In this document: positions 1 to 59,610 of the stretch, piece after piece | Layout of the letters: each line of letters opens with the position of its first letter | Numbering within the stretch: position 1 is the stretch's first letter | Program-made: the position numbers and the translations under genes | Assembly (NCBI GenBank): GCA_951406725.2 | Contig: OX597815.1 | Location: 184,884,001 to 184,948,000, forward strand | DNA length: 64,000 nt | Source of the DNA: Octopus vulgaris | Taxonomy: Eukaryota | Direction of reading: 5' to 3' | The notes under the pieces: model-generated | Databases searched by the model: none | What the model was told of the DNA's origin: nothing | Seen by the model: only the letters and a program-made list of their open reading frames with translations

Positions 1-1985
1 ATCAAATTTGTGTTTTTGGTGTCTATAGCTGTGAGCATGTTTGCTGTATATATTTTTGTGGTGTTGGTGTGGCTGTTGTTTGCGTTGGGTTTTGAAATGT
101 CTTCGTGAGATGTATTTCCCCCTGCTTTGTTCGGGTTTGCATTTGGTTTGGTTGTGTTTCTGCTCTTTATTTTCCTTCTTTTTGTAGCTATTTGCCATTC
201 CTGACTGGTTTCGTCTTCCGACGAAATTTCTGAGGAATCAGTAGGGGGTAGGGGTATGTTGTGGGCTTCTATGTATGTCTGTGTAAGTGGTTGTGTTGTT
301 GTTTTCGTTGTTGTTGGTTGTTGAGTGTTTGTGTGTGTTGAGTGCGGTATAAGGGATGGGGGATCAGTTTGTGTGTGTTGTCTTTGTTTTTCTGTTCCTT
401 TGGGTTTTGCTGTTGTTGGTGGTGTTGGTATTTTTTCAGGTGTTGAGTGGTTTTTGGTTGATGACGGATTAGCTTGGTGTGCTTCTTTTGTCGTCTTCTG
501 TGTTGATGGTGGTGTGGGTAGTAGAGCTTTTTTCCGGAGTGCTTTGGTTGTGGTAGTGGTTGTTGTTGTTGCTCTTGGTGTGCAGTGGTTGGGCACGTCT
601 TTTTCAAGTGTGTTTCGCTTCCACACAAATAGCAGCGTGGTCGCCTGCCCTCTACCACTATATAGAGTTTGTAGCCTCCTGGCAGTTCTATAGCGGTGGG
701 TATCTTCTCTCTTGCTGCTTCATCCAATTGAAGCAGGAATTCGATTGATTTGCCCGCATAGTCTTTCTCTCCTAGAACCGCGATTTCCAGGATGTTTGTC
801 TCTGACATTGTCTCTGTCATTTCAAAGCAGATGGCAGAGACCAACCATTGTGTTTCGACTTCAAATGGTATGTTTTTTATTTGGACTTTCGTGACCCTTT
901 TGTTTAAATAGACTGGTATCATTACCAAGTCGTCCGAATGCAGCTCCAATGTGGAAAAACGTTTTGCTAAACTTTCGTTGAGGAAACGTACTTGGACTGT
1001 ACCAAATTTGTTTCCCCAACTGATATATTCCTTGGAGTCCCATGCAGGACGAAGGCATTTTTCGATTTTTTCCTGCGGTGCATTTTCTGTTCTTCTTGTT
1101 TTCTTGTTTATTACTTTATAAATTATTGTTTTTTTTTGTGTGTTTTCCACGATGTGTTGTGGAATGTGAAGGTGCAATTTGTCTCCTTCTTTGGAGAAGA
1201 GTGCCTTTGTGCGGTTTATCTCTTGTGTGGTGAATGTTACAATTGTTCTTTTTTGTTTTGTTACGTCCGCAAAATTCGTTTTGAATTTGGCAGTAGAAGT
1301 GTTAATTGTGGCAGTGTTAATTGAAGTCATGGTAGTGGTGTTGGTGTTGGCGGTATTAGCAGCAGAAGGCTTGGATGTAGCATTTGACGTCGTAGTAGTG
1401 GTGTTGGTGTTGGCGGTGTTGTCTTTGGTAGGCGGCTTTGTGCCAATTTCGTTGTTGTTGTTGTTGGTGGTGATGGTGGTGGTGCTGGCATTCATGTTTT
1501 CGTTTGTATTCATTTTTGAAATCCCTTTCTCTGTCCCTTTATCATCAACAAGTGGTGTGGGGAGTGAGGGGAAATCTAAGTTAATGTCTTTGGTCGCGGC
1601 GATGGTGAATGCGACGTTAGTTTTGCTGTTGTTGTTGGTGGTGGTGGTGATGGTGGTGACAGCGGTGTTCACGCTGCGATGTTTAGCAGCTAGTGGTAGC
1701 AATAGTGTTTTGCTACCGTTCTGCATGACTGGCGGGCTAGCCACGTGGTTTCTAGTTGCCATTTTCAAAATGAAAAATGGCTAAAAAACCCACGAAAGTT
1801 TTGAAAGTTTTTTTGTAATTTCACCCATACAGGGGCGGAATTCTACGTGAATAATTCTCAGGTTTTTTAGTGAATGAACTTGCACAACGATTAAAACAAA
1901 ATATTTGACAACAAGGAGTTTTAAACATGTAAAAGTGGCCAACTTACGTGGAGCCGATATGACTAGCGTCCGTCCATTGTGAGAG
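1..1985 (-). mobile_element. 5' part of a Tx1/L1-like non-LTR retrotransposon (5'UTR + ORF1), running off the left edge of the window
   Basis: Long ORF with an RRM-like central region and a gag-type zinc knuckle. A ~210-bp leader abuts a (TATC)n/TC microsatellite at ~1985. Confidence 0.75.
269..1768 (-). pseudogene. LINE ORF1 nucleic-acid-binding protein with CCHC zinc knuckle; probable frameshift near 560-580
   Basis: RPRCYLCGSETHLKKTCP matches CX2CX4HX4C. After the (CAA)n tract another frame reads more ORF1-like (..SSEDETSQEWQIATKRRK..) and continues towards base 1. Confidence 0.75.
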
Positions 1986-7979: not shown

Positions 7980-8391
<412 letters not shown>

Positions 8392-12829: not shown

Positions 12830-13050
12830 ATAACGGGAAGGTTTACGAAAATAAACAAAAGACGAAGGCAGGTGGAGTACAAACAAACAAATGTATTAGT
12901 ATGGCGCTCAGGAATAGAAATAGAACAAGTCTTTTACGTTTCGAGCCTACGCTCTTCGACAGAAAGATACACAGAAAAAAAAAAAACAAGGAGAGAAATA
13001 AGGAGAGAAAAGAAATGCGTGTAGGAGCTAACGATCTATCATGGCGTCAT
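12830..13050 (-). mobile_element. Penelope-like pLTR fragment (P1-related) with hammerhead-like motif at 12931-12966
   Basis: Minus strand: cttt CTGTCGA a gagc-gtag-gctc GAAAC GTA aaag. Confidence 0.6.
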
Positions 13051-16409: not shown

Positions 16410-18368
16410 CATTATTATATCTCTTTATCACAGGTTTTCCTGGAGTTTCAGGAATCTTACATGCATAGTGGGCTTGTTACCTACGGTAGCATGTTATCCA
16501 TTTTTTTCAGTTATCTAATACTTTCCTAATTATTCTGGCCGTGCCACAGGAGGCAAACCTTTTGTAACAGTTCCACTGGGCCCTCTATTCCAATTTCCTT
16601 CATATCCCCCTTCATGCCTTCTGATACTGTTCCCAAGGACCCAATGAAAATCGGCACCTTTTTCATTTTCCATAGCCGAGCTATTTCGTATTTAAGAGGG
16701 TTGTATTTATCTATTTTTTCGCCTTCTGTATTTATCTACTTTTTCGCCTTCCTTCTTGACTCTTTGTGGGTCAAAGGGGCATGCAACATCAACCATAGAG
16801 CATATGTGGTGCACCTTGTCCACCACCAATAGTTCCAGTCTGTTATGCTCTAGCATCTGATCTGTTTGGATAGGGAAATCCCAGAAGATTTTGCTAGTCT
16901 TCGACTCCGCCGCCCGCTGTGGTTTGTGCTCATACCACGTGTTGTCTCTATCTAGCTTCCACTTTTCGCAGTTTCCATTGTAGCGCTTTCGCTACCTGAT
17001 CGTGTCGCCACAACTTGTAGTAGTTTTGGGTAAGTCTAGGACATTCGTTCGTGGTATGGGCAATGGTTTTATCCACTCTATTGCAGATGTGACACAGCAG
17101 AGGCACTTGCTCATTCCTCAGATTGACCCTCCAGTTTGTAGCTGAAGCTTGGTCATGCACTGCCAGTACAATGCTTTCGGTCTCTTTTTTAGGCTTCCTT
17201 TCATCAACCAATCCCACCTATATTTTCCAGCAACTTCTGTTGTGGCTACACATGGAATTTATTGTGTGTTGTCTCTTCTTGCGTAATTCTTCTCCATGTC
17301 CTTTTTGTACTTCTTCCTTTGTTTTCCCTTTTTTTATCTGCTCTCAATACTCCCTCCTTATTTCTTTACTGCCCACAAGGGGCTACAGAGGGGACAAACA
17401 AGGACAGACAAATGGATTAAGTCGATTATATCGACCCCAGTGCGTAACTGGTACTTATTTAATCGACCCCGAAAGGATGAAAGGCGAAGTCGACCTCGGC
17501 GGAATTTGAACTCAGAACGTAACGGCAGACGAAATACCTATTTCTTTACTACCCACAAGGGGCTAAACACAGAAAGGACAAAGAAGGACAGACAAATGGA
17601 TTAAGTCGATTATATCTACCCCAGTGCGTAACTGTTACTTATTTAATCGACCCGAAAGGATGAAAGGCAAAGTCGACCTCGGCGGAATTTGAACTCAGAA
17701 CGTAACGGCAGACGAAATACGGCTACGCATTTCGCCCGGCATGCTAACATTTCTGCCAGCTCACCGCCTTGATCTCAGTACTCCCTCCTTCCTAACTGTC
17801 ACTAGCAAGGTCGCCTTACTTTGGTGTAGCTTTCTCATTCAGCTCTCGATTTCGATACGCACGCAGTCTTCCACACATACCAGTCCCCTTCCTCCATTTG
17901 CTCTCTCCATGTATAGGCGATCAGTGTCCGCATGTGGATGATGGGCTTCATGCATCGTTAGAAGCTTTCTTGACTTCCTATCCATCTCCTTTAGTTTCCC
18001 CCCCCCCCCAGTCCACTTCAGGATTCTAGCGCCATACCGAACTACTGTGACTGCGCGTGAGTTTATTGCCAAAATCATGTTTCTGGCATTCATCTTTGAA
18101 GCCAATATTTCTCTCACTCGCCGCAAGTACTCTCTCTCTCTCTTTGTTTTTTCCTCCATAACATGGTGCTTGATTCCACCTGCCTCAAGTATTCCCAGGT
18201 ATTTATATGCCTTCTGTTCTGAAAAGCTTTCGTCGTCTCATCACCATCGCAGATCTTTTTGAGAGTCCAAATTCCATCTTCATATCTTAGGAGAGAATCC
18301 GCATAGACTGAACTAGGCTGTCCAGTTCTGCCTCAGTCTTTGTGAAAATTTTCAGGTCCTCCATGAAT
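16410..18368 (-). mobile_element. Old, degraded R4/Dong-type LINE (RT C-terminus, zinc finger, RLE), interrupted by a SINE dimer
   Basis: Fragments FMEDLK.., AINSRAV..HPHADTDRLY..GGRGL, CHIC..ECP..RHDQV, GSLG..GTARIIRKVL. Confidence 0.8.
17359..17771 (-). mobile_element. SINE family A head-to-tail dimer
   Basis: Two bodies, one head, and a single TSD TCTCA(A/G)TACTCCCTCCTT. Confidence 0.9.
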
Positions 18369-18647: not shown

Positions 18648-19241
18648 TCACATCGACAATGCTCTTCTCAATACGTGTGATGTACCAGTTAAGACAATCT
18701 TTTGCACTTCTTGCAGGGATGGTAAGCCAGGGATCATTCTCATATAATTTTCGGTTCCCTTCTTGATCATTCCTAGTGCTCCTACGATCACTGGTATTGT
18801 AACCGCCTTGAGATGCCACATTTTCTCAATTTCAATGAGTAGGTCTTTATATTTTCTGAGCTGGTCAAACTCTTTCGCTGAGATATTATGATCACAGGGG
18901 ATGCTCATGTCGATCAATAAGCAAACTTTATTGTTTTGGTCTTTCACAACAATATCTGGTTTATTGGCCTTGATGGTTCGGTCTGTATGTACTGGAAAGT
19001 CCCACAGAATGGTTACATTTTCTCCTTCAGTTACAGCCTCAGGGTGGTGATTATACCACTTGTCGGCAGTTTTGATATTGTAATGCCGACTTATTAGCCA
19101 GTGGAGATATTGGCCAACTCTGTCATGTCTTAATTTATACTCTGCTGGTGCTAAGACTTTACATCCAGAGATTAGGTGGTCCACTGTTTCAATCATGTCG
19201 TTGCAGAATCGGCATTTTGGGTCTGCTCCATTTTTCATCAC
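18648..19241 (-). pseudogene. Zinc finger + PD-(D/E)xK endonuclease domain of the R4/Dong LINE
   Basis: 197-aa ORF with CRFC, RHD, KPDIVV and GALG motifs. Confidence 0.9.
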
Positions 19242-19922
19242 ATTGGCCTGGTAGTTCCGGGTTAATAGGCTTTGGTCTTGAGCAGCCAGGATGAAACCTT
19301 CGCTCTCTGCTTTTAGCCCTGAGCTCCGTAGCCACTAATGGGTATGCTTCTGGTCAACATCAGCTTGTTTGCTGCGGGTAACATATTTGCCGTGCAGAGG
19401 TTTCTCCTCTCACCTATCAGCCAATTTTGCTCGTGCGCTTTTTTCATTGCCATCATTTTCACCTTCTTTGCAACCATAGTTACCGTACTTCCCTCGGGTT
19501 GTTCAGTTTGGGTATCCTGCACGAGATCAATAGCAAATTTTTTGCTTTCCTTGATGATAGAATGAAGCTTCTTTCGTCTCTCGTGATTTTCCACGAGCTT
19601 TAGCATCCAGTCATTCGATATTTCGAGATATTTGGCCAGTCCAATTGTGGTTGTTTTGTAAGCTAGTTCAAATTGGATCAGGCCTCGACCTCCTTGGGCT
19701 CTGGGAAGGTAAAGGCGATCTACGTCTGCCTTTGGGTGGTGCATCCTATTACAACTCAGCAGCTTGCGTATTTTCCTATCTATATTCTTTACTTCACTCA
19801 TATTCCAGTTCAACACATTGTAGCTATAAGTAACAACTGGAACTGCTAAGGAATTTATAGCTAACACCTTGTTACGTGCATTTAGTTCAGATTTCAGGAC
19901 TGCACGAACTCTCCTATAACAT

Positions 19923-20882
19923 TCATTCCTGATTTTCTTTCATGCTTGCATGCTGAATACCAGAGCCTTCATTTATCCCTAAATATTTGTATGTTTGTTC
20001 TTGCTCAAGCTCTCTTATGACTGTGTCAACATCTAACACGACTGAATTTGTGGTCTTCACTTTCCCTTTCTGGAAAGTGGCCTTGGCACACTTCTCAAGT
20101 CCAAACTCCATCCCGATGTCATCGCTGAATGCTTTCACGGTGCGCAATAGGCCTTCAAGTTCATTATTGTCTTTACCATAAAGTTTTAAGTCATCCATAT
20201 AAAATAGATGGCTTATTTTTTTATTGGCAATTTTATACCCATACCCTGTTCTGTTTAATTCACTTGTAAGGGGTATTAGGGCTATGCAGAATATTAAAGG
20301 TGAAAGTGAGTCACCTTGAAAAATTCCACAGTTGATGTTTATATTTTCTGAGGCAAGTACTCCATTAGAGTGGTATAATTGGAGATTTGTATTCCACAAC
20401 GACATATTGTGCTTCAGGAAGTTTGAAATCACAGGGGAAATTTTGAAGATGTCCAGCGATCTCAAGATCCATGGATGCGGTATACTGTCGAAGGCCTTTT
20501 TATAGTCAATCCATGCGGTGCTGAGATTTCTGCGCTTGTTGTGACAGTTCTCAAGGATCATACGATTGATTAGCAGTTGATCTTTGCATCCGTAAGAGCC
20601 TCGGCGGCACCCTTTTTGTTCAATGGGGAAAATATCGTTCTTCTCCATGAATGCATATGTTTTCTCCACCAGGATAGATGTTAGGATTTTATACGTGGTG
20701 GATAGACAGGTTATAGGCCGATAGGTTTTTGGAAGGTTGGTTCCGTTATTCTTTGGGAGTAGGTAAGTAATGCCACTTGCTAACCATTCAGGTGTTTTCT
20801 TTGGGTCTCTCATAATTCCATTGAGTAGCTGAACTAGCTTACCGTGTGCGCATGGGAGCGATGCGAGCCAGAAATTCGGCAC
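19923..20882 (-). pseudogene. Reverse transcriptase domain of the R4/Dong LINE
   Basis: 319-aa ORF with canonical non-LTR RT motifs. Confidence 0.92.
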
Positions 20883-20949
20883 CCTATCTTTACCGGGGGA
20901 TTTCCAATTATGGGCCTTCGTGAGTGCTTTTCTTAGGTCTGCTATTGTG

Positions 20950-21149
20950 CTATTTTTCTTCTTCTTTCAAATTTGCTTCCATTTCTTGCCGAGCGTCTTC
21001 CCGACTCCTACGGCAAAGAAACTCATAGTATACATTGGTAGGCCATTAAACCAAACTCAATAGTTCGTTCATTTTTTAAATTTTTTTAAGGTTAAATTAA
21101 AATACATGGGCAGTAACAGCTCTCACAGCGACAATGCTCTTCTCAATAC
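20950..21149 (-). mobile_element. 3'-terminal 200 bp of the same Dong family, fused directly to the long copy
   Basis: Near-identical to 18469-18675. Confidence 0.9.
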
Positions 21150-25692: not shown

Positions 25693-26535
25693 TCATATAT
25701 ATATGTATGTATATATATATATCACTTCACTTCACTTTGACCGACCAGTCCGCCAGGCGTCCATTTAACACCGCTGGTCACAGCACGCTGTCCACTCCTC
25801 TCTGGATCGCGCCTTTCTCATCCACGTGATCCCAATCGTCCTCTTGAAATCGTCACTCCACCGTCGTGGAGGTCTTCCGGGTGGTCTTTTCCGCACACGC
25901 GGGTACCACTCGACAACTGCGTGCGTCCACCGATTATCGGTGAGCCGGGCGACGTGTCCAGCCCATCTATACTTGCTGCGTGTATACTCTGCGATGACAT
26001 CTCTCACGCCGGACTTATTTCTGATGATGTTGCTATTTATGTGCTCTCTCAACGAGATACCAAGCATTGACCTTTCCATGGCTCTTTGAGCCGTTATCAC
26101 TCTTTGCTCTTCTCTCTTTGTGGTAGCCCATGTTTCACTACCATATAACATTGCAGGCAGAACTGCACTGTTAATGAGGTTGGTGCGGGTGGTCCTGTCC
26201 AACCTTCCCTTGAACACATCCCTTATGCCATTGAATGCCTTCCATCCAGCCCTTACTCTCCGTGAGATCTCCTTTTTGATATCCCGGCACATATTTACTT
26301 CTTGTCCCAGTTAGACATATTCTCTCACCTCCTCTATTTCATCACTGCCGATCACCATGACCGCATGAACTTTGTTTTCATGCGGTTCATCTTGAGACCT
26401 ACTGCAGAACTTTTGATGTCGAGCTCCGTCAGCATGGTCTGAAGCTGATCCATGTTTTCAGCGATGAGTACGATGTCGTCAGCGAAACGGAGGTGAGTGA
26501 GGAGCTCGCCATTGATGTTGACACCACCTTGCAAT

Positions 26536-29283: not shown

Positions 29284-29352
<69 letters not shown>

Positions 29353-29730
29353 ATCTAAACATGAAAAGACAAAGAGAAAACACAACAACGCGAGGACGTA
29401 GAAGAAATATAGTATTATTGGACGCTCAGGAAAGAAGGAGGGTTTAATGTTTCGAGTGGAGCTCTTCGTCGGAAACATAGGAGAAGGAAAGATCCAGAGA
29501 AGGGAAGACAGAGGGAAAAAAAATCGCCCACGCTATACACGCGGTCACATTTTGAATATATATATACACATATATATACACATATATACGATGGGCTTCT
29601 TTCAGTTTCTGTCTACGAAATCCACTCACAAAGCTTTGGTCGGACCCTAGGCTATGGTAGAAGATGCCAAGCAGTGGGACTGAACCCGGAACCATGTGGT
29701 TCGTTAGCAGGCTACTTACCACACAGCCTA
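29035..29730 (-). mobile_element. SINE family B carrying a nested Penelope-like P1 fragment (29345-29555) in its internal microsatellite
   Basis: Both SINE halves flank the insert. Confidence 0.85.
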
Positions 29731-31667: not shown

Positions 31668-32636
31668 AAGGCGGCGAGCTGGTAGAATCATTAGCACTCC
31701 GGACGAAATGCTTAGCAAGTATTTCGTCTGCCGCTACGTTCTGAGTTCAAATTCCGCCGAGGTCGACTTTGCCTTTCATCCTTTCGGGGTCGATAAATTA
31801 AGTACCAGTTACGCACTGGGATCCATGCAATCGACTTAATCCGTTTGTCTGTTCTTGTTTGTCCTCTCTGTGCTTAGCCCCTTGTGGGTAGTAAAGAAAT
31901 AGGTATTTAGTCTGCCGTTACGTTCTGAATTCAAATTCCGCCGAGGTCGACTTTGCCTTTTATTCTTTTGGGGTCGATTAAATAAGTACCAATTACGCAC
32001 TGGGATCGATGCAATCGACTTAATCCGTTTGTCTGTCCTTGTTTGTCCTCTCTGTGCTTAGCCCCTTGTGGGTAGTAAAGAAATAGGTATTTCATCTTCC
32101 GTTACGTTCTGAGTTCAAATTCCGCCGAGGTCGACTTTGCCTTTTATCCTTTCGGGGTCGATAAATTAAGTACCAGTTACGCACTGAGATCGATGCAATC
32201 GACTTAATCCGTTTGTCTGTCCTTGTTTGTCCTCTTTGTGCTTAGCCCCTTGTGGGTAGTAAAGAAATAGGTATTTAGTCTGCCGTTACGTTCTGAATTC
32301 AAATTCCGCCGAGGTCGACTTTGCCTTTTATTCTTTTGGGGTCGATTAAATAAGTACCAATTACGCACTGGGGTCGATGCAATCGACTTAATCCGTTTGT
32401 CTGTCCTTGTTTGTCCTCTTTGTGCTTAGCCCCTTGTGGGTAGTAAAGAAATAAGTATTTCATCTTCCGTTACGTTGAGTTCAAATTCCGCCGCGGTCGA
32501 CTTTGCCTTTCATCCTTTCGGGGTCGATTAAATAAGTACCAGTTACGCACTGGGGTCGATAAAATCGACTTAATCCGTTTATCTGTCCTTGTTTGTCCTC
32601 TCTGTGTTTAGCCCATTGTGGGCAGTAAAGAAATAT
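31668..32636 (+). repeat. Tandem array of five ~184-bp SINE A bodies behind one head
   Basis: Units start near 31718, 31903, 32087, 32271 and 32455; TSD GTATTTATTCTATCGA flanks the whole array. Confidence 0.93.
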
Positions 32637-33442
32637 GTATTTATTCTATCGACCTCGAAATTATGAAAAGCAAAGTCGATTTCACTGGACGAAAGATGGA
32701 CGAAAGGCTACTGAACATTGCGCCCAGCGTTCTAACGATTCTTCCAACGCTCGACCTGACTTCACTGAACTTTCAAATGCAAATATATAAACCAACCAAC
32801 AAGTTAAATAAGTATCACTAGCAGTATTTCTTCTCATTATTGTTTAATGTCTACGTCAGCGTCTCCTTATTGACAAGAAGTATAAACGTGAATACGTCGC
32901 TCATGGTGTTTTAATGAGATAAAGGATTGTTTAAACACTTCATTCGTAAGCTTTATTAATACCACAGACAGATTTTATGAATTAGCTGTAGGATTTTGAT
33001 TACATATTCATGAAGTGAACTGTCGCCATGTGTTGTTCATAAAAATGTGTTTCAATAAAGATATGTTGAGTCTTTATGTACATCTGCGCTTTGAATAGAA
33101 GACGTGTTAATAAGATTATACTCGGCACTGCAGTAGCACCGCAGTAGAGGAATGTGAGATTTGCTCAACTGTGACCAAACTATGAATAGAATTTTTTTCC
33201 ATTGGTTCTATAGTAATGACACTTAGAAATATTTTCTGGCGTTAAAAACAAAATGCATTCGTATGCATATCACTGATTTAAGCAAGGAAAATATGTAGTC
33301 AATGAATACTTAAAGAGCATCAACGGTACCTCTGTAATAGTGAACACCGTGTAATGCTCACCACACCCAATTATTACTTAATCCGAATGAATCAACATAG
33401 CTCCGATGCACTTCAATAATAATGTTATACATAATATGTAGG

Positions 33443-39833: not shown

Positions 39834-40896
39834 TAGGTGTTAGAAAAAGTAATGGAAAAACCTTAAAATTTCAAGCAAATTTATTTTAATATGAGGTAGG
39901 CCCGCCTTTGGCAGTATTTACAGCTTGAATTGAACGAGGTATGAACTCGTAAAATATTTGAAGTGTTTCCAAAGGAATTTTTGTCCATTCTTCAACTAAA
40001 ACAGTCTCTAGTTCTTGTAGCGATCATGGTGGAGGATATCGACTCTTTACTTGTTTTTCGAAAATGCACCATAAATGTTTAATAATATTGAGATCTGGGA
40101 ACTGTGGTGGCCAGATAAGATGTTCAACTTTACTAGAATGTTCCTCGTGCCATTCAGTAACAACCTTAGCTGTTTGAATTGGAGCATTATCATCCTGAAA
40201 GATTGCGTTGTACTCCGGAAACAGTTCCGCAACCGTAGGATGAATTGAATTAGATAAAATGCTTAAATAATCTTGATAATTAATTCTGCCACGAAGGGAA
40301 ACCATTGGCCCGGCGGATTTCCAAGGTATAGCCCCCCTACTGAGATCATCACAGATTCTCCACCATGTTTAGCAGTTGGAAGAAGGCAGTCTGGGTCAAA
40401 TGCTTCTTTTGGCTGTCTCCCCACGTATACTCGGCCGGTGGTCGGAAATAAGGTAAAGGATAACTCGTCCGAGAAAATAGCATTATTCCACTGCTCAAGG
40501 GACCAATTCTGTAGGTTTTTACTCCATTGTAAACGCTTTGCAACGTTTGTTTTTAAAAGTAGTGGTTTTCTCTTTGCAGCTCTCCCGTGAAATCCAGCTT
40601 TGTGCAACTCCCGGCGAACAGTTTTTGTGGAAACTGGGTTCTCAAGGTGGTCATTAAGCTCTGCAGTAAATTTTGGGAGCTGTACTTTTATGATCCCTTT
40701 CTAACAATCCACACAAGAGTCCGACGGTCCCTATCTGAAAGTTTTGGTATTCTTACGGAATTTTGTTTCGACCAGGAAGTTTTTCCTTCTTTCTCAAAGG
40801 CTGTCATTACTTTGGATACAGTACTTCTTGATACACCAAACATTTCCGCTGTTTTCGTTACGCTAGCGACTGCCATACGAGCACCAACAATTCAAC

Positions 40897-46822: not shown

Positions 46823-47034
46823 ACAATGATAAATCTCAGAGCGAGTTATAAACAGTAGCAGCAACACATCGTGACGTATATTTGCCATTTGAATATGGCT
46901 AACCCCTAAGGGTGGATGCTACTGTGGTTTGTAGCCCCAGGAGGACACCTCCTCCAGCTGGCTATAGACACACTTTCTGTGCCCTATCAGTATTTGCAAA
47001 GGGAAGCCATCCTTCCCGTCTTCAACTTATGATA

Positions 47035-47079
47035 CACACGGACTCGAATTTCAGGGTATTGACCCGTCATCGGCGTGTG
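47035..47079 (-). ncRNA. Degenerate hammerhead-like motif (P4)
   Basis: cacacg CCGATGA cggg-tcaata-ccct GAAAT tcga GTC cgtgtg, with stem I extendable further. Confidence 0.6.
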
Positions 47080-47178
47080 AGAATCATAGTTGTCGATGAG
47101 AAGTAGGTTCCATTCACAAATACATATACTTTTTCCAGTATCGAATGACACTGATATTGAAAAAGTGTAATCAAACAA

Positions 47179-47613: not shown

Positions 47614-48049
47614 TACATACACACACACATACATACATACATACATACATACATACATACATACATACATACATACATACACACACTCATATATATATAT
47701 ATACAAGGATTGAACAAAACAATGGAAACACCTAGCATCATAGCATCATAATTTTAAAATATCTATAAAACCATCAAAAACTTGTTTATTTTTATGTTTT
47801 TTTATTTATTATTAGTGTTGTTTAATATTGTAAAGTATAGAAGCCATCTTATCATGGCTAACCACATTGGGGTGGGGGTGTTACTGTAGCTTTATAGCCC
47901 CAAGAGATCTTCGTCTCTAGCTGTCTTTAGACACAATATCAGTGTCCTTGGAGTATTTGCAAAGGGAGGCCATCCCTTCGTCGCAAGCCTCAGGCATCGT
48001 ACGTAAGGTCTCACTTGTTACCATTGATTGGGCGTCTTTTATGTTTCAT

Positions 48050-52757: not shown

Positions 52758-52806
52758 TCAAAATGTGACCGCGTGTGTACGTTCTTTGGATCTTTCCTTT
52801 TCCTAT

Positions 52807-52841
52807 GTTTCTGACGAAGAGCTCCGCTTGAAACGTTAAAC
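52807..52841 (+). ncRNA. Minimal type-I hammerhead motif in P1 fragment (52757-52943)
   Basis: gttt CTGACGA a gagc-tcc-gctt GAAAC GTT aaac. Confidence 0.65.
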
Positions 52842-53164
52842 CCTCCTTCTTTCCTTCTTTCCTGAGCGTCCAATAATACTATACTTGTTCCACGTCCTCG
52901 CGTTGTTGTGTTTTCTCTTTGTGTTTTCATGTTTGGATTAACTATATGTGTGTGTGTATATATACCTACATACACACACACACACACATACATATATATA
53001 TATGTATGTATGTATGTATGTCCTGTTTTCCATTTTGTCTCGTTGTTTACGTATTTCACTCGTTTTTCCCTCATTTGTTTACGTATTTTATGTTATTTGC
53101 ACCGTTGGTGACGTCCTGTACCTATATATGCATGTGAATATATACATATACACACAAAACTAAC

Positions 53165-56277: not shown

Positions 56278-56398
<121 letters not shown>

Positions 56399-56485
56399 TA
56401 TTAGAGACAAAACCACTATTTTGCAAAACAAACAAGGAAAGACTTAATCAATACATAAAATTTTAATAAATAGTCAAAAAAACCG

Positions 56486-56528
56486 CCACTACAATCGTTT
56501 CTTGTCTTGATCGACAATCTTCAGGTGG
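56486..56528 (-). ncRNA. Mirror copy of the hammerhead on the other palindrome arm
   Basis: Exact reverse complement of 56569-56611. Confidence 0.8.
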
Positions 56529-56568
56529 ACTTCAATAAGTCAGTTTCAAGAAACTGACTTATTGAAGT

Positions 56569-56611
56569 CCACCTGAAGATTGTCGATCAAGACAAGAAAC
56601 GATTGTAGTGG
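56569..56611 (+). ncRNA. Canonical type-I hammerhead ribozyme motif
   Basis: ccac CTGAAGA ttgtc-gatcaa-gacaa GAAAC gatt GTA gtgg; predicted cleavage after 56607. Confidence 0.85.
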
Positions 56612-56803
56612 CGGTTTTTTTGACTATTTATTAAAATTTTATGTATTGATTAAGTCTTTCCTTGTTTGTTTTGCAAAATAGTGGTTTTGTCTCTAATAAT
56701 ATTTTATAATATTTTACTATAAAATTGGATTTAATCCTAAATCTGATTTTTTTTCCCTGTAATTTTGGATTTATTCCCTAATATTTATTATTATTATATA
56801 TAA

Positions 56804-56855
<52 letters not shown>

Positions 56856-57175
56856 TGGTTATCGCCAAGCTAATATGGTAGTCAATAAATATAAGACTAA
56901 AGCTGCCGCTGATTAGCTCCAAGAGGCCATCGCCTCTAGCTAGCTATATGACACACGAACATGCATCCATTATAACCTTCGAACAGGGGAGGTCAGCCGC
57001 TCCCCCTTGCTGGATTTATTTACCTAATTTCAGTGGAATACATCCACTTGTTTTCAAAAATAGAAACATTAAAATTTCTAAGTCTCTCTAAAGGAGATTA
57101 CGGAGATTACTGAAATTAGGTAAATAAATCCTTCGAACAGACGGTCAGTAGCGACATCTGCTGGGTTTGGCTACT

Positions 57176-57216
57176 CTGCATTGATAAAGGGCAACTACCC
57201 TGAAACATGTCTGCAG
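57176..57216 (+). ncRNA. Type-I hammerhead with U3-A8 core variant
   Basis: ctgca TTGATAA aggg-caacta-ccct GAAAC at GTC tgcag. Confidence 0.75.
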
Positions 57217-57516
57217 ATGTCTGACCTCCCCTGTTCGAAGGTTATAATGGACGCAGGTTCGTGTGTCATATAGCTAGCTAGAGGCGATGGCCTCTTGGAG
57301 CTAATCAGCTGCAGTTTTAGTCTTATATTTATAGACTACCATATTAGCTTGGCGATAACTATTAATATCCAGTATCGCTGCCGTAATCTCCTTTAGAGAG
57401 ACTTAGAAATTTTAATGTTTCTACTTTTGAAAACAAGTGGATGTATTCCAGTGAAATTAGGTAAATAAATCCTTCGAACAGACGGTCAGTAGCGACACCT
57501 GCTGGGTCTGGCTACT

Positions 57517-57557
57517 CTGCATTGATAAAGGGCAACTACCCTGAAACATGTCTGCTG
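57517..57557 (+). ncRNA. Second copy of the U3-A8 hammerhead
   Basis: Same motif with one mismatch in stem I (tgctg). Confidence 0.7.
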
Positions 57558-57783
57558 ATGCCTGACCAGCAAGGGAAAGCGGCTGACCTCCCCTGTTCGA
57601 AGGTTATAATGGACGCAGGTTCGTGTGTCATATAGCTAGCTGGAGGCGATGGCCTCTTGGAGCTAATCAGCGGCAGCTCTAGTCTTATATTTATCGACTA
57701 CCATATTAGCTTGGCGATAACTATTAATATCCAGTACCGCTGCCGTAATCTCCTTTAAAGAGACTTAGAAATTTTAATGTTTC

Positions 57784-57833
<50 letters not shown>

Positions 57834-57989
57834 ATCGGGGGTGGGGGGAGTTCCTTCCTTGGCCCTGCTTGGAGCTTCTCCTGTATCAGGAGGACTCTGT
57901 CATTCATATTATCACATACTTTGTAGACTATGTCTATCGCATTTTATTGTATTTTCAATTTCTCTATTCATATCCTTTATGTGAATTCC

Positions 57990-58392
57990 CACACAAATTC
58001 TTGTCTCTCATTGTGGCGTCCCCTACACGCATGTCCTTAATTATTGGTACTACTACCATCTTTTTCATCGACCACAACTGCTTAACCTCCCAATCTAGCC
58101 TGTCATATCTATCGACATTTCTTTCTTCCTTATCGTATACCTTGTTGTCAGTTGGGGATGCTATATTATTATTATTATTATTATTTCTTCGTAATACAGT
58201 GTAGGTAAAATTGCAGAGTAGTCCTTAGTCATCAGTCAAGTCACAACTAGGACCTCAGACAGATAATACTTTCCTTAAGATGTGCGCTGTGCCCAATAAG
58301 GCTGCTTTTTGCAAGACATCAATCTTGCATGGGATTTCCAGTTGCCTTAAGAAATTTTGAAGTTTCAATGGTATTGAGCCCAACGCTCCGGC
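57990..58392 (-). mobile_element. Two further R4/Dong-type endonuclease 3' fragments separated by (TTA)n
   Basis: GALGSIP..LQKAALLGTAHILRKVL* (58165-58390) and RYDRLDWEVKQLWSMKK..VVPII (57990-58160). Confidence 0.75.
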
Positions 58393-58539
58393 TATTTCGC
58401 AGCTTTATAGGTGCGAAAACACTGGTCACTCCCTGACAGGCCATAACAAACAACCTTATATATATAATATAATATTATATTATATTATATTATGAAATAA
58501 GAGCAGGAAGATTACAAACTTCTAAACTTTTTAGGGTTG

Positions 58540-59610
58540 ACCATAATATCTTACTCCCAAAATTGGCAAATGTTGGAATCCCTGGAAAACTTTTACACTG
58601 GATTAGATATTTCCTGGCGAATAGAAGTTGTGGTCGATGGAGTCCACTCAAGCCCAGAAAAAGTCACCAGTGGTGTCCCTCAGGGGACTGTCTTAGTCCC
58701 GCTCCTCTTTATAATTTACATAAATGACCTTTCCAGCGTCGTAAATTACTGCAAAGTGAAAGTATTTGCTGATGACACTAAGCTCCAGAAAATCATCAAT
58801 GAAGAAGAACGAACTCAACTCCACTCTGATCTATATGCTATGAGTCAATGGGCAGACAAAAACAAAATGCAACTAAACGAGGGAAAATTCGAGCTGATGC
58901 ATTTTGGAAGACAGTCTATACTAAAACAGCCATGTATATCTTCTGTGATGACTATACTAAAACAGCCATTAGATGGTGAACCGCTCACGACATCTAATAA
59001 TATCAGAGACCTGGATGTAATTGTTGATAACAATCTCAGTTGGAGTCTCCCCATAAAAAACAAAACATCTGGAGGATTGAATCACCCCAGAAGGCACTCA
59101 CTAAACGAATTGAAGACATGGCTGCTCTTGATTATTGGGACCGCCTTAAAGCCTTGAAACTCTACTCTCTCTAGCGCCGATGTGGAGAATATACCGCCAG
59201 CATTGCCCAAACGACCTGAACATTAGTTTCAAGGTTCATCCAAAGCTGGGATCACGATCCATACGTCCCCTGCCCAATTCAGGATCACAACATATAGGTA
59301 CACTGCGACATAATTTCTTTTCCTCAACATTGTCCCTGCCCTGTTTAACATTGTTCCAAAACTGATTAAAGAGGAAAAGGATCCCATCACCTTTAAACGG
59401 AGTCTGGACAAATTTCTTCGAGGAATAGCAGATAAGCCACCCATATCTGGATACAACTCACTCAACAAGAACTCACTACTTGAATGGACTACAATACCAG
59501 AAAACTTGACTTAAAAAGGATTTAGATAATCCTATCAGGTGGTACTATTAAGTTAGACATGACCTGGACCAATCTTTGGTCGAAACATATCTAAGTTTTA
59601 TCTAAGTTTT
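58540..59610 (+). mobile_element. CR1-clade LINE, 5'-truncated and degenerate
   Basis: SGVPQGTVL.PLLFIIYINDL, FADDTKL; 3' tandem tail TATCTAAGTTT x2. Confidence 0.9.

Follow-up and report, generated by a model that had tools for sequence, protein, structure and literature searches.

The window analyzed here is a 64,000-nucleotide stretch of the Octopus vulgaris genome (GenBank assembly GCA_951406725.2, contig OX597815.1, positions 184,884,001 to 184,948,000, forward strand), and all positions given below are counted from its first letter. At 56849-57785, set between two (TA)n runs, it carries an insertion composed of 1.9 head-to-tail units of a repeat family and one inverted arm (Table 1). 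On the plus strand, 57111-57226 recurs as 57452-57567 with a spacing of 341, and 57221-57423 recurs as 57583-57785 with a spacing of 362. The full family unit is 362 nt, and the spacing of 341 arises because copy 1 lost 21 nt (the equivalent of 57568-57588) between two 6-nt direct repeats, i.e., at a 6-nt microhomology. A unit length of 341 nt was rejected on account of this deletion and of the spacing of 362 found elsewhere in the plus arm. A first-pass annotation, made from the letters of the DNA, had described a tandem unit of about 341 bp; the tandem arrangement was borne out, but its length was not, the true unit being 362 nt and copy 2 reaching only part of it.

Between the two parts of the inverted arm, 95 nt including the hammerhead are deleted (57473-57567 equivalent, 2-nt microhomology), and the 3' end of this arm (57730 equivalent) runs straight into (TA)n. 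The piece at 57012-57102 had been recognized earlier as inverted, which is correct (to 57103), but it is not a single 91-nt piece, as 56849-57013 is also inverted and belongs to the same arm. Similarly, the "unit-to-unit junction" placed at 57451/57452 is merely where the plus arm happens to start, and no biological boundary lies there. The plus arm and the inverted arm have two 3' ends 55 nt apart, both leading into (TA)n, and a check for a target-site duplication found (TA)n as both flanks, in agreement with the flanks proposed before. The local copies differ from one another at 4/116, 7/197, 8/165, and 2/92 positions (2 to 5%), and this mutual divergence argues against an assembly echo. Besides, both local deletions (21 nt in copy 1 and 95 nt in the inverted arm) share the breakpoint 57567/57568, on the 3' strand of distal helix I, and this breakpoint is possibly a template-switch hot spot.

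As already supposed, the unit has no coding capacity; read as a circle, its longest stop-free run is 56 codons and the longest from a Met is 31 codons. G+C contents of 0.416 and 0.445 were obtained for the unit. No LTR pair was seen in the insertion, and ARAGORN found 0 tRNA genes in the 64-kb window.

Table 1. Features of the insertion and of its diverged relatives in the window
Feature	Position	Strand	Basis or remark
(TA)n microsatellite, left target flank	56795-56852	.	TRF
Inverted arm, 3' part (= 57566-57730)	56849-57013	-	8/165 differences from copy 2
Inverted arm, 5' part (= 57381-57472)	57012-57103	-	2/92 bases differ
9-nt direct duplication, head-to-head meeting point of the two arms	57093-57110	+	Sequence
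Copy 1, 341 nt (full unit shortened by 21 nt immediately 3' of the hammerhead)	57111-57451	+	
Hammerhead 1	57175-57217	+	Core U3 (57181)-A8 (57186); helix I 6/6 pairs; predicted cut after C17 57211
Copy 2, partial, 334/362 nt, ends in (TA)n	57452-57785	+	
Hammerhead 2	57516-57558	+	Core U3 (57522)-A8 (57527); predicted cut after C17 57552
Module of two conserved hairpins, downstream of hammerhead 2	57612-57665	+	Alignments of 5 window copies
55-nt extension at the plus-arm end, absent from the inverted-arm end; putative Penelope-type "tail"	57731-57785	+	
(TA)n microsatellite, right target flank	57787-57835	.	TRF
R1, a solo relative of 356 nt, diverged and set between two (TA)n runs	46823-47178	-	nhmmer, MAFFT
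R2, diverged 5'-truncated relative without hammerhead core	47825-48013	-	nhmmer E 6.5e-4 to unit, 4e-18 to R1

Hammerhead motif, relatives, and predicted folds

A hammerhead with a TTGATAA core had been claimed for each of the two plus copies, and all of its parts were found: the cores at 57181 and 57522, GAAACATGTC at 57202 and 57543, and C17 at 57211 and 57552. Both copies present, in order, UCUGCA (helix I), the UUGAUAA core, helix II, GAAA, ACAUGU (helix III), and C17; the second strand of helix I comes next, and then an internal 3x1 loop and a distal helix. Both have the U3-A8 pair, with every other core letter canonical, and pair 10.1-11.1 is A-U as against the usual G-C. In both, helix II (4 bp) closes a 6-nt loop and helix III (ACAUGU) is palindromic. 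Helix I of hammerhead 2 keeps 5/6 pairs, with a private U-U at 57518/57556, and its 3x1 internal loop and distal helix are intact. The helix geometry (helix I, 6 bp and open; helix II, 4 bp; helix III, 1 to 2 bp with a palindromic loop) matches the one published for canonical type I hammerheads of metazoans, in which helix III has to be extended by a neighbor (PMC4209133).

We searched the window with a type I descriptor accepting C3-G8 or U3-A8, using 100 block-wise dinucleotide shuffles of the window as the control. The descriptor found 5 sites, all inside repeats, compared with a mean of 0.02 (maximum, 1) in the shuffled windows. Rfam scans (92 and 9 matches) returned no hammerhead family; they also missed a canonical-core motif at 56573 and a minimal motif at 52811 within the scanned range, and the Rfam test is therefore insensitive. 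Judged by its otherwise canonical core letters, its three helices, and descriptor hits far above chance, the motif is a type I hammerhead with a U3-A8 core, and cleavage is predicted; a U3-A8 hammerhead had been named in the first-pass annotation.

A weak BLAST match outside the ribozyme, about 10 kb from the insertion, first revealed the diverged relative R1. R1 and the unit matched with nhmmer E values of 1.5e-6 and 3.3e-6 in the two directions, 47073 being aligned to 57522 (position 3 to position 3), and their cores were aligned gap-free by MAFFT. The R1 hammerhead has C3-G8 (C3, 47073; G8, 47068; C17, 47041) and is decayed at U4 and 10.1. Its helix I is Watson-Crick paired at 6/6 positions, 5 of these pairs being changed on both sides relative to the unit (chance, about 0.002), and it has the same 3x1 loop, 5/5 distal pairs, and a near-palindromic 8-nt helix III. 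The 3x1 internal loop in helix I and the 6-nt loop 2 ending in UA are kept in both the unit and R1. Because the homologous R1 carries C3-G8, the proposal that U3-A8 is a compensatory double change is backed. It is likely that U3-A8 arose from C3-G8 inside this superfamily and spread in a younger branch, a direction that we infer from the rarity of U3-A8 rather than from a tree. As for the ends of the relatives, weak end alignments place the start of R2 near the predicted cut site and its end near the 57730-type end, and R1 seems to end near the 57785-type end.

Downstream of the hammerhead, the two-hairpin module was paired in 95.3% of 85 cells across the five window copies, with 4/17 pairs changed on both sides. 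Of 500 shuffles, 1 to 5 scored as high on four of the five measures used, and 169 did so on the fifth; slid controls gave 34 to 49%. This covariation was computed from five related sequences, with the structure derived from one of them. The G-U pairs of the hairpins at 57615 and 57642 are mostly A-U in the family. The module may be a recognition element for the mobilizing enzyme.

Folding predictions indicated that the copy 1 hammerhead alone would misfold (helix I pair probability, about 0.04), because the 21-nt deletion lets an upstream strand capture the 3' strand of helix I. For the transcript 57120-57610, the predicted energy of a double-hammerhead fold exceeds the free minimum by 1.9 kcal/mol; in this fold, the inner helix I serving the predicted cut at 57211 is perfect again. 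Both local hammerheads are thus flawed, copy 1 by misfolding when alone and copy 2 by its helix I mismatch. The isolated motif folds no better than shuffles (z, -0.4 to -1.6), as expected for a three-way junction. The unit as a circle folds better than shuffles (z, -3.8 for 362 nt and -2.9 for 341 nt; 0/60 shuffles as low), and the predicted circle is 55 to 57% paired. The ribozyme is likely to work as a dimer.

The repeat family in sequencing runs

Among 24 listed sequencing runs, 20, from 13 studies, contained part of the stretch, none of them listed as RNA, and one unit (57424-57785) was aligned to the contigs of 4 of the 24. In the DNA runs of organisms A, C, and E (three studies), 4673, 3996, and 2002 contigs fell on the unit; these counts are not copy numbers, and one of the three organisms may be the source of the window itself. 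A further run (X12), guessed to be RNA and possibly consisting of DNA, gave 65 contigs on the unit, one of them across a head-to-tail joint, and it was not taken as evidence of expression. Varied flanks were found behind 57730 among the DNA-run contigs. The unit is a repeated, dispersed, and abundant family, and its standing as a family, assumed in the first-pass annotation, is upheld by thousands of contigs across three DNA runs.

The head-to-tail joint 57785->57425 was present in contigs of X1 (two) and X6 (one), and 57782->57425 was present in X9, so that among the contigs listed only three have the exact joint, or four with the near-exact one. The share of aligned sequence continuing into unlike DNA was 0, 0.01, and 0 in the three DNA runs, and no consistent long foreign continuation occurred among the 18 DNA-run loose ends (within the 24 listed of 638). 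Many opposite-strand joints are scattered across the unit in X1 and X6, which fits frequent 5' inversions in the family. Another subfamily, of greater divergence, is suggested by loose ends near 57677-57696. Contig depth was higher over 57580-57760 than over the ribozyme, a profile resembling 5' truncation, although contig depth cannot rank the parts of the unit and the profile was left out of account. In metagenome and viral contigs, a degenerate hammerhead pattern gave 0 loci, and a 21-mer of the unit gave 0 loci in metagenome and genome contigs.

Variant shares were weighted by contig depth, a crude measure, and 40 of 103 variant places were listed, all 40 reaching at least 60% in at least one run. 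None of the 40 listed places (of 103) falls on the 12 core positions, by itself a weak indication (P, about 0.09); C3 or G8 is therefore apparently not the majority in any run, and there may be a minority C3-G8 subfamily. Position 57556 is A at 94 to 100% of the depth in all four runs, giving a 6-bp helix I; the ending tgc(a/t)g read from the two local copies is accordingly right for these copies, but its T is private to copy 2 and A is the family letter.

The changes 57548 A>T and 57549 T>A had shares of 0.12/0.12, 0.06/0.06, 0.89/0.91, and 0.23/0.23 in the four runs. Together they swap one self-complementary helix III hexamer for another, with self-duplex energies of -4.6 and -4.8 kcal/mol, compared with +0.9 and +0.3 for the single changes. 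Since the double change keeps the palindrome and either single change would destroy the self-duplex, it matches the prediction of pairing between two hammerheads. Selection of the ribozyme in dimeric form finds its best indication in this paired change, which, taken with the helix I compensation of R1, makes selection on the predicted hammerhead fold visible. Other helix changes show no compensating partner among the places listed: the last helix I pair carries 57516 T>G (72% in X6), and the enclosing stem carries 57477 A>T (62% in X9). For 57519 G>A (89% in X9), the partner change is absent from the 40 listed of 103 places.

Proposed mobilization, relation to known elements, and alternative readings

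In published descriptions, Penelope-like insertions form partial tandems with an inverted copy at the 5' side, bear a tail on one side, and favor (TA)n (10.1101/2021.04.23.441226; PMC11167929). A partial tandem, a 5' inverted copy, a one-sided tail, and a microsatellite target are all present here, and they support the Penelope-type mobilization proposed in the first-pass annotation, which we infer from this layout. Furthermore, the three DNA runs have 34, 35, and 20 contigs with TA-rich loose ends behind 57730, the same end as that of the inverted arm, and a second, more ragged 3' end lies at about 57772-57785. The anole Penelope-like enzyme is described as nicking AT-rich DNA and starting reverse transcription inside the RNA at two sites, the interval between which forms the tail (PMC11167929). 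By analogy, internal initiation at two sites on AT-rich DNA would explain the tail of the present insertion.

Copying from 57785 to 57111 passes both predicted cut sites, and the R1 ribozyme is uncut as well; the template was therefore a circle or an uncut multimer. Hence the earlier conclusion that the template was multimeric or circular stands, since both cut sites were copied through, but its argument from a junction at 57451/57452 falls. Circle and uncut multimer fit the insertion sequence equally. A six-frame listing of the window gave no RT/GIY-YIG frame adjoining the unit, and no autonomous Penelope partner was found within the 64-kb window. Young Penelope families of O. vulgaris are reported as 30 families with 329 insertions (PMC13282606), and these families, together with two other hammerhead-bearing Penelope-type remnants in the window, make helpers plausible. 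The combination of repeats in the window agrees with the catalog published for O. vulgaris (PMC13282606).

We consider it probable (about 0.6) that the locus is one insertion of an abundant non-coding 362-nt family with a U3-A8 type I hammerhead, likely a non-LTR retrozyme copied in trans by an autonomous Penelope-like element. According to this reading, tandem loci would be transcribed as multimers, and two neighboring hammerheads would pair their palindromic helix III strands, cut after GUC, and release monomers, which may be circularized by a host ligase. A Penelope enzyme (RT plus endonuclease) would then nick (TA)n and prime inside the RNA at 57730 or about 57772-57785. Reverse transcription of a circle or of a multimer left uncut, proceeding past its intact hammerhead sites, would yield partial tandems with a 5' inverted arm.

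Metazoan non-LTR retrozymes are described as tandem units of 150 to 450 bp with a type I hammerhead and a G+C content under 50%, and those of mussel as 350- to 390-bp units with about 5000 motifs (PMC7229834). The 362-nt unit resembles them (Cervera and de la Pena 2020, PMC7229834) in being a short non-coding tandem with a hammerhead per unit, and in G+C content, self-paired predicted circle, abundance, and proposed Penelope link; a dimer-dependent helix III, predicted for our unit, is shared with the axolotl and newt retrozymes. It differs in its U3-A8 core, its likely cephalopod host, and its clear Penelope-type insertion marks. Provisionally, membership among the non-LTR retrozymes is suggested by tandem arrangement, hammerhead, size, G+C content, lack of coding capacity, dispersal, and predicted self-pairing. 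Retrozymes are held to be derived from Penelope terminal repeats (10.64898/2026.07.22.740005), and mobilization of animal retrozymes by Penelope is put forward as a hypothesis (PMC7229834; 10.64898/2026.07.22.740005). The 2026 survey comprises 31 vertebrates, 3 insects, and 1 coral (10.64898/2026.07.22.740005). Octopus or cephalopod has 0 mentions in the main text of PMC7229834, and octopus, cephalopod, or squid has 0 in supplementary file 2 of PMC4209133.

The U3-A8 pair has precedents. For natural core variants with C3-G8 changed to U3-A8, activity in vitro is stated (Perreault et al. 2011, PMC3088659); they are isolated prokaryotic examples from a survey, whereas the 362-nt unit is a high-copy animal repeat family. 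In Schistosoma mansoni, about 1,300 minimal U3-A8 motifs are reported in Cercyon Penelope-like elements (Cervera and de la Pena 2014, PMC4209133). The Cercyon hammerheads share with ours the U3-A8 covariation, the Penelope link, the predicted dimers, and the fact of being missed by the standard descriptor. As described, however, they are minimal, with a helix II of 7 to 8 bp, a helix I of 4 to 5 bp, and a loop 1 that is ill defined, and occur mostly singly in the pLTRs of an ORF-bearing element (PMC4209133). The 362-nt unit, in contrast, has canonical 6/4-bp helices, loops 1 and 2, no extra base after A9, and a short self-tandem. The idea that U3-A8 is new to science was discarded, since it is already published as a natural variant active in vitro (PMC3088659) and from Schistosoma (PMC4209133).

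With the endonuclease-bearing Penelope-like elements (Craig et al. 2021, 10.1101/2021.04.23.441226; Frangieh et al. 2024, PMC11167929), the insertion shares the partial tandem, the 5' inverted copy, the one-sided tail, the (TA)n or AT-rich targets, and the two 3' ends. Those elements differ in their RT/GIY-YIG ORF and in a tail described as 30 to 40 bp (PMC11167929; 10.1101/2021.04.23.441226), whereas the 362-nt unit has no ORF and a tail of 55 nt. We found no literature report of a cephalopod retrozyme, or of U3-A8 in any retrozyme, in a search outside which key supplements lay. The element type and the U3-A8 variant are both already in print, and no new class is opened. Lunse et al. reportedly dealt with dimeric Penelope hammerhead variants in 2017.

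Retrozyme surveys use fixed hammerhead descriptors, and an abundant family with a swapped core shows what such surveys can miss. If the retrozyme reading is true, cephalopods join the hosts of ribozyme-made circular RNAs. Besides, the two states of the 3-8 pair in one superfamily within a single window provide a natural compensatory pair, and the conserved 3' hairpins with two fixed 3' ends offer a defined RNA substrate for the question of Penelope mobilization in trans. A bolder version, that a cephalopod family swapped C3-G8 for U3-A8, is active as a dimer, makes plentiful 362-nt circular RNA missed by CUGANGA surveys, and with its full Penelope footprint gives direct evidence from the genome, as well as a ready assay, for the hypothetical retrozyme-Penelope link, can be advanced tentatively, at somewhat less than even odds. 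Cephalopods are heavy A-to-I editors; that editing of A8, a target absent from a C3-G8 core, could tune cleavage is much less likely.

Alternatively, the unit could be a short SINE-like non-autonomous Penelope passenger, copied from uncut multimeric RNA without stable circles, in which the hammerhead is slow, protein dependent, or now dispensable. This we regard as rather unlikely. Such a passenger would accord with the anole element, for which unprocessed RNA is described as the main insertion substrate, the ribozyme as cutting only with protein, and hammerhead cleavage as not needed for insertion in vitro (PMC11167929). Only 1 of 9 predicted retrozyme dimers of Xenopus is reported to have cleaved in vitro, leaving 8 that did not (Li, Clavereau and Pollet 2026, 10.64898/2026.07.22.740005); here, too, copying of the plus arm went past two sites that were uncut, a ribozyme is missing from R2 and from the inverted arm, and some helix changes are uncompensated. 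However, the palindrome-preserving double change in helix III among present subfamilies and the full compensation seen between R1 and the unit suggest that an active fold is under selection, and retrozymes described as cleaving and circularizing in coral, mussel, and axolotl (PMC7229834) have the same canonical geometry, loops 1 and 2 included.

Less probable still, and in our judgment decidedly unlikely, is a reading in which a long autonomous Penelope-like element has the unit as its terminal repeat (pLTR) and has left this locus as a truncated remnant. The unit runs directly into itself, here in two arms and likewise in contigs of three runs, its continuation into unlike DNA is 0 to 0.01, R1 is a solo unit between two (TA)n runs, the hammerhead geometry is canonical rather than minimal, and no RT/GIY-YIG frame adjoins the unit. 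These observations weigh against a remnant, although the insertion layout is the same as that of autonomous elements and Xenopus retrozymes are reported as homologous to pLTRs in 24/57 families (10.64898/2026.07.22.740005). The failure to see a foreign body so far rests on 24 of 638 loose ends, so that a low-copy long element with the same end is possible. Finally, a chance motif in a locally duplicated or misassembled repeat, with which the lack of an Rfam hammerhead match and the unremarkable isolated folds would agree, is largely refuted and most improbable in view of the descriptor rate of 0.02 per shuffled window, the 2 to 5% differences among three local copies, unlike an assembly echo, the family-wide covariation, and the C3-G8 relative.

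Other mobile elements lie in the window. At 56389-56708 (tail to about 56795), between (TA)n runs, we observed a perfect palindrome with 159-nt arms, 100% complementary, and a 2-nt spacer; each arm has a canonical C3-G8 hammerhead motif (cores at 56573, plus strand, and 56524, minus strand), and the right arm has about 85 nt extra. It is apparently a second, unrelated, young Penelope-type insertion in the same microsatellite region, and it could be an assembly artifact. A third family with a minimal C3-G8 hammerhead occurs at 52782-52945 (+), 8127-8291 (+), 29346-29501 (-), and 12886-12969 (-). Its motif, with an extra base after A9 and a palindromic helix III, is intact at 52811, and the remaining copies (95, 88, and 75% identity) show decay; the members of this family are likely remnants of Penelope terminal repeats. 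A relationship of the 362-nt unit to the palindrome or to this minimal-hammerhead family was rejected, as local alignments gave only 12- to 17-nt matches, and we took them as unrelated.

Five tandem copies of a 184-bp repeat (92% matches) occupy 31719-32647, with further copies dispersed in the window; this is presumably an octopod tRNA-derived SINE. Broken non-LTR retrotransposon frames with RT (PF00078 relatives, up to 72% identity) were seen at 18651-20966 (-), 17842-18237 (-), and about 58230-58450 (-), and they include a restriction-like endonuclease end, which we take to be of Dong/R4 type. A search with a neighboring RT frame gave 89 matches, of which one was named (coelacanth, 49% identity). 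The six-frame listing contains further mobile-element frames at 272-1780 (-), 25768-26310 (-), 40027-40700 (-), and 58501-59154 (+), which we assume to be, respectively, a 503-codon ORF1-like frame with a zinc-knuckle end, an RTE-like RT end, a Tc1-like transposase remnant, and a CR1/L2-like RT fragment.
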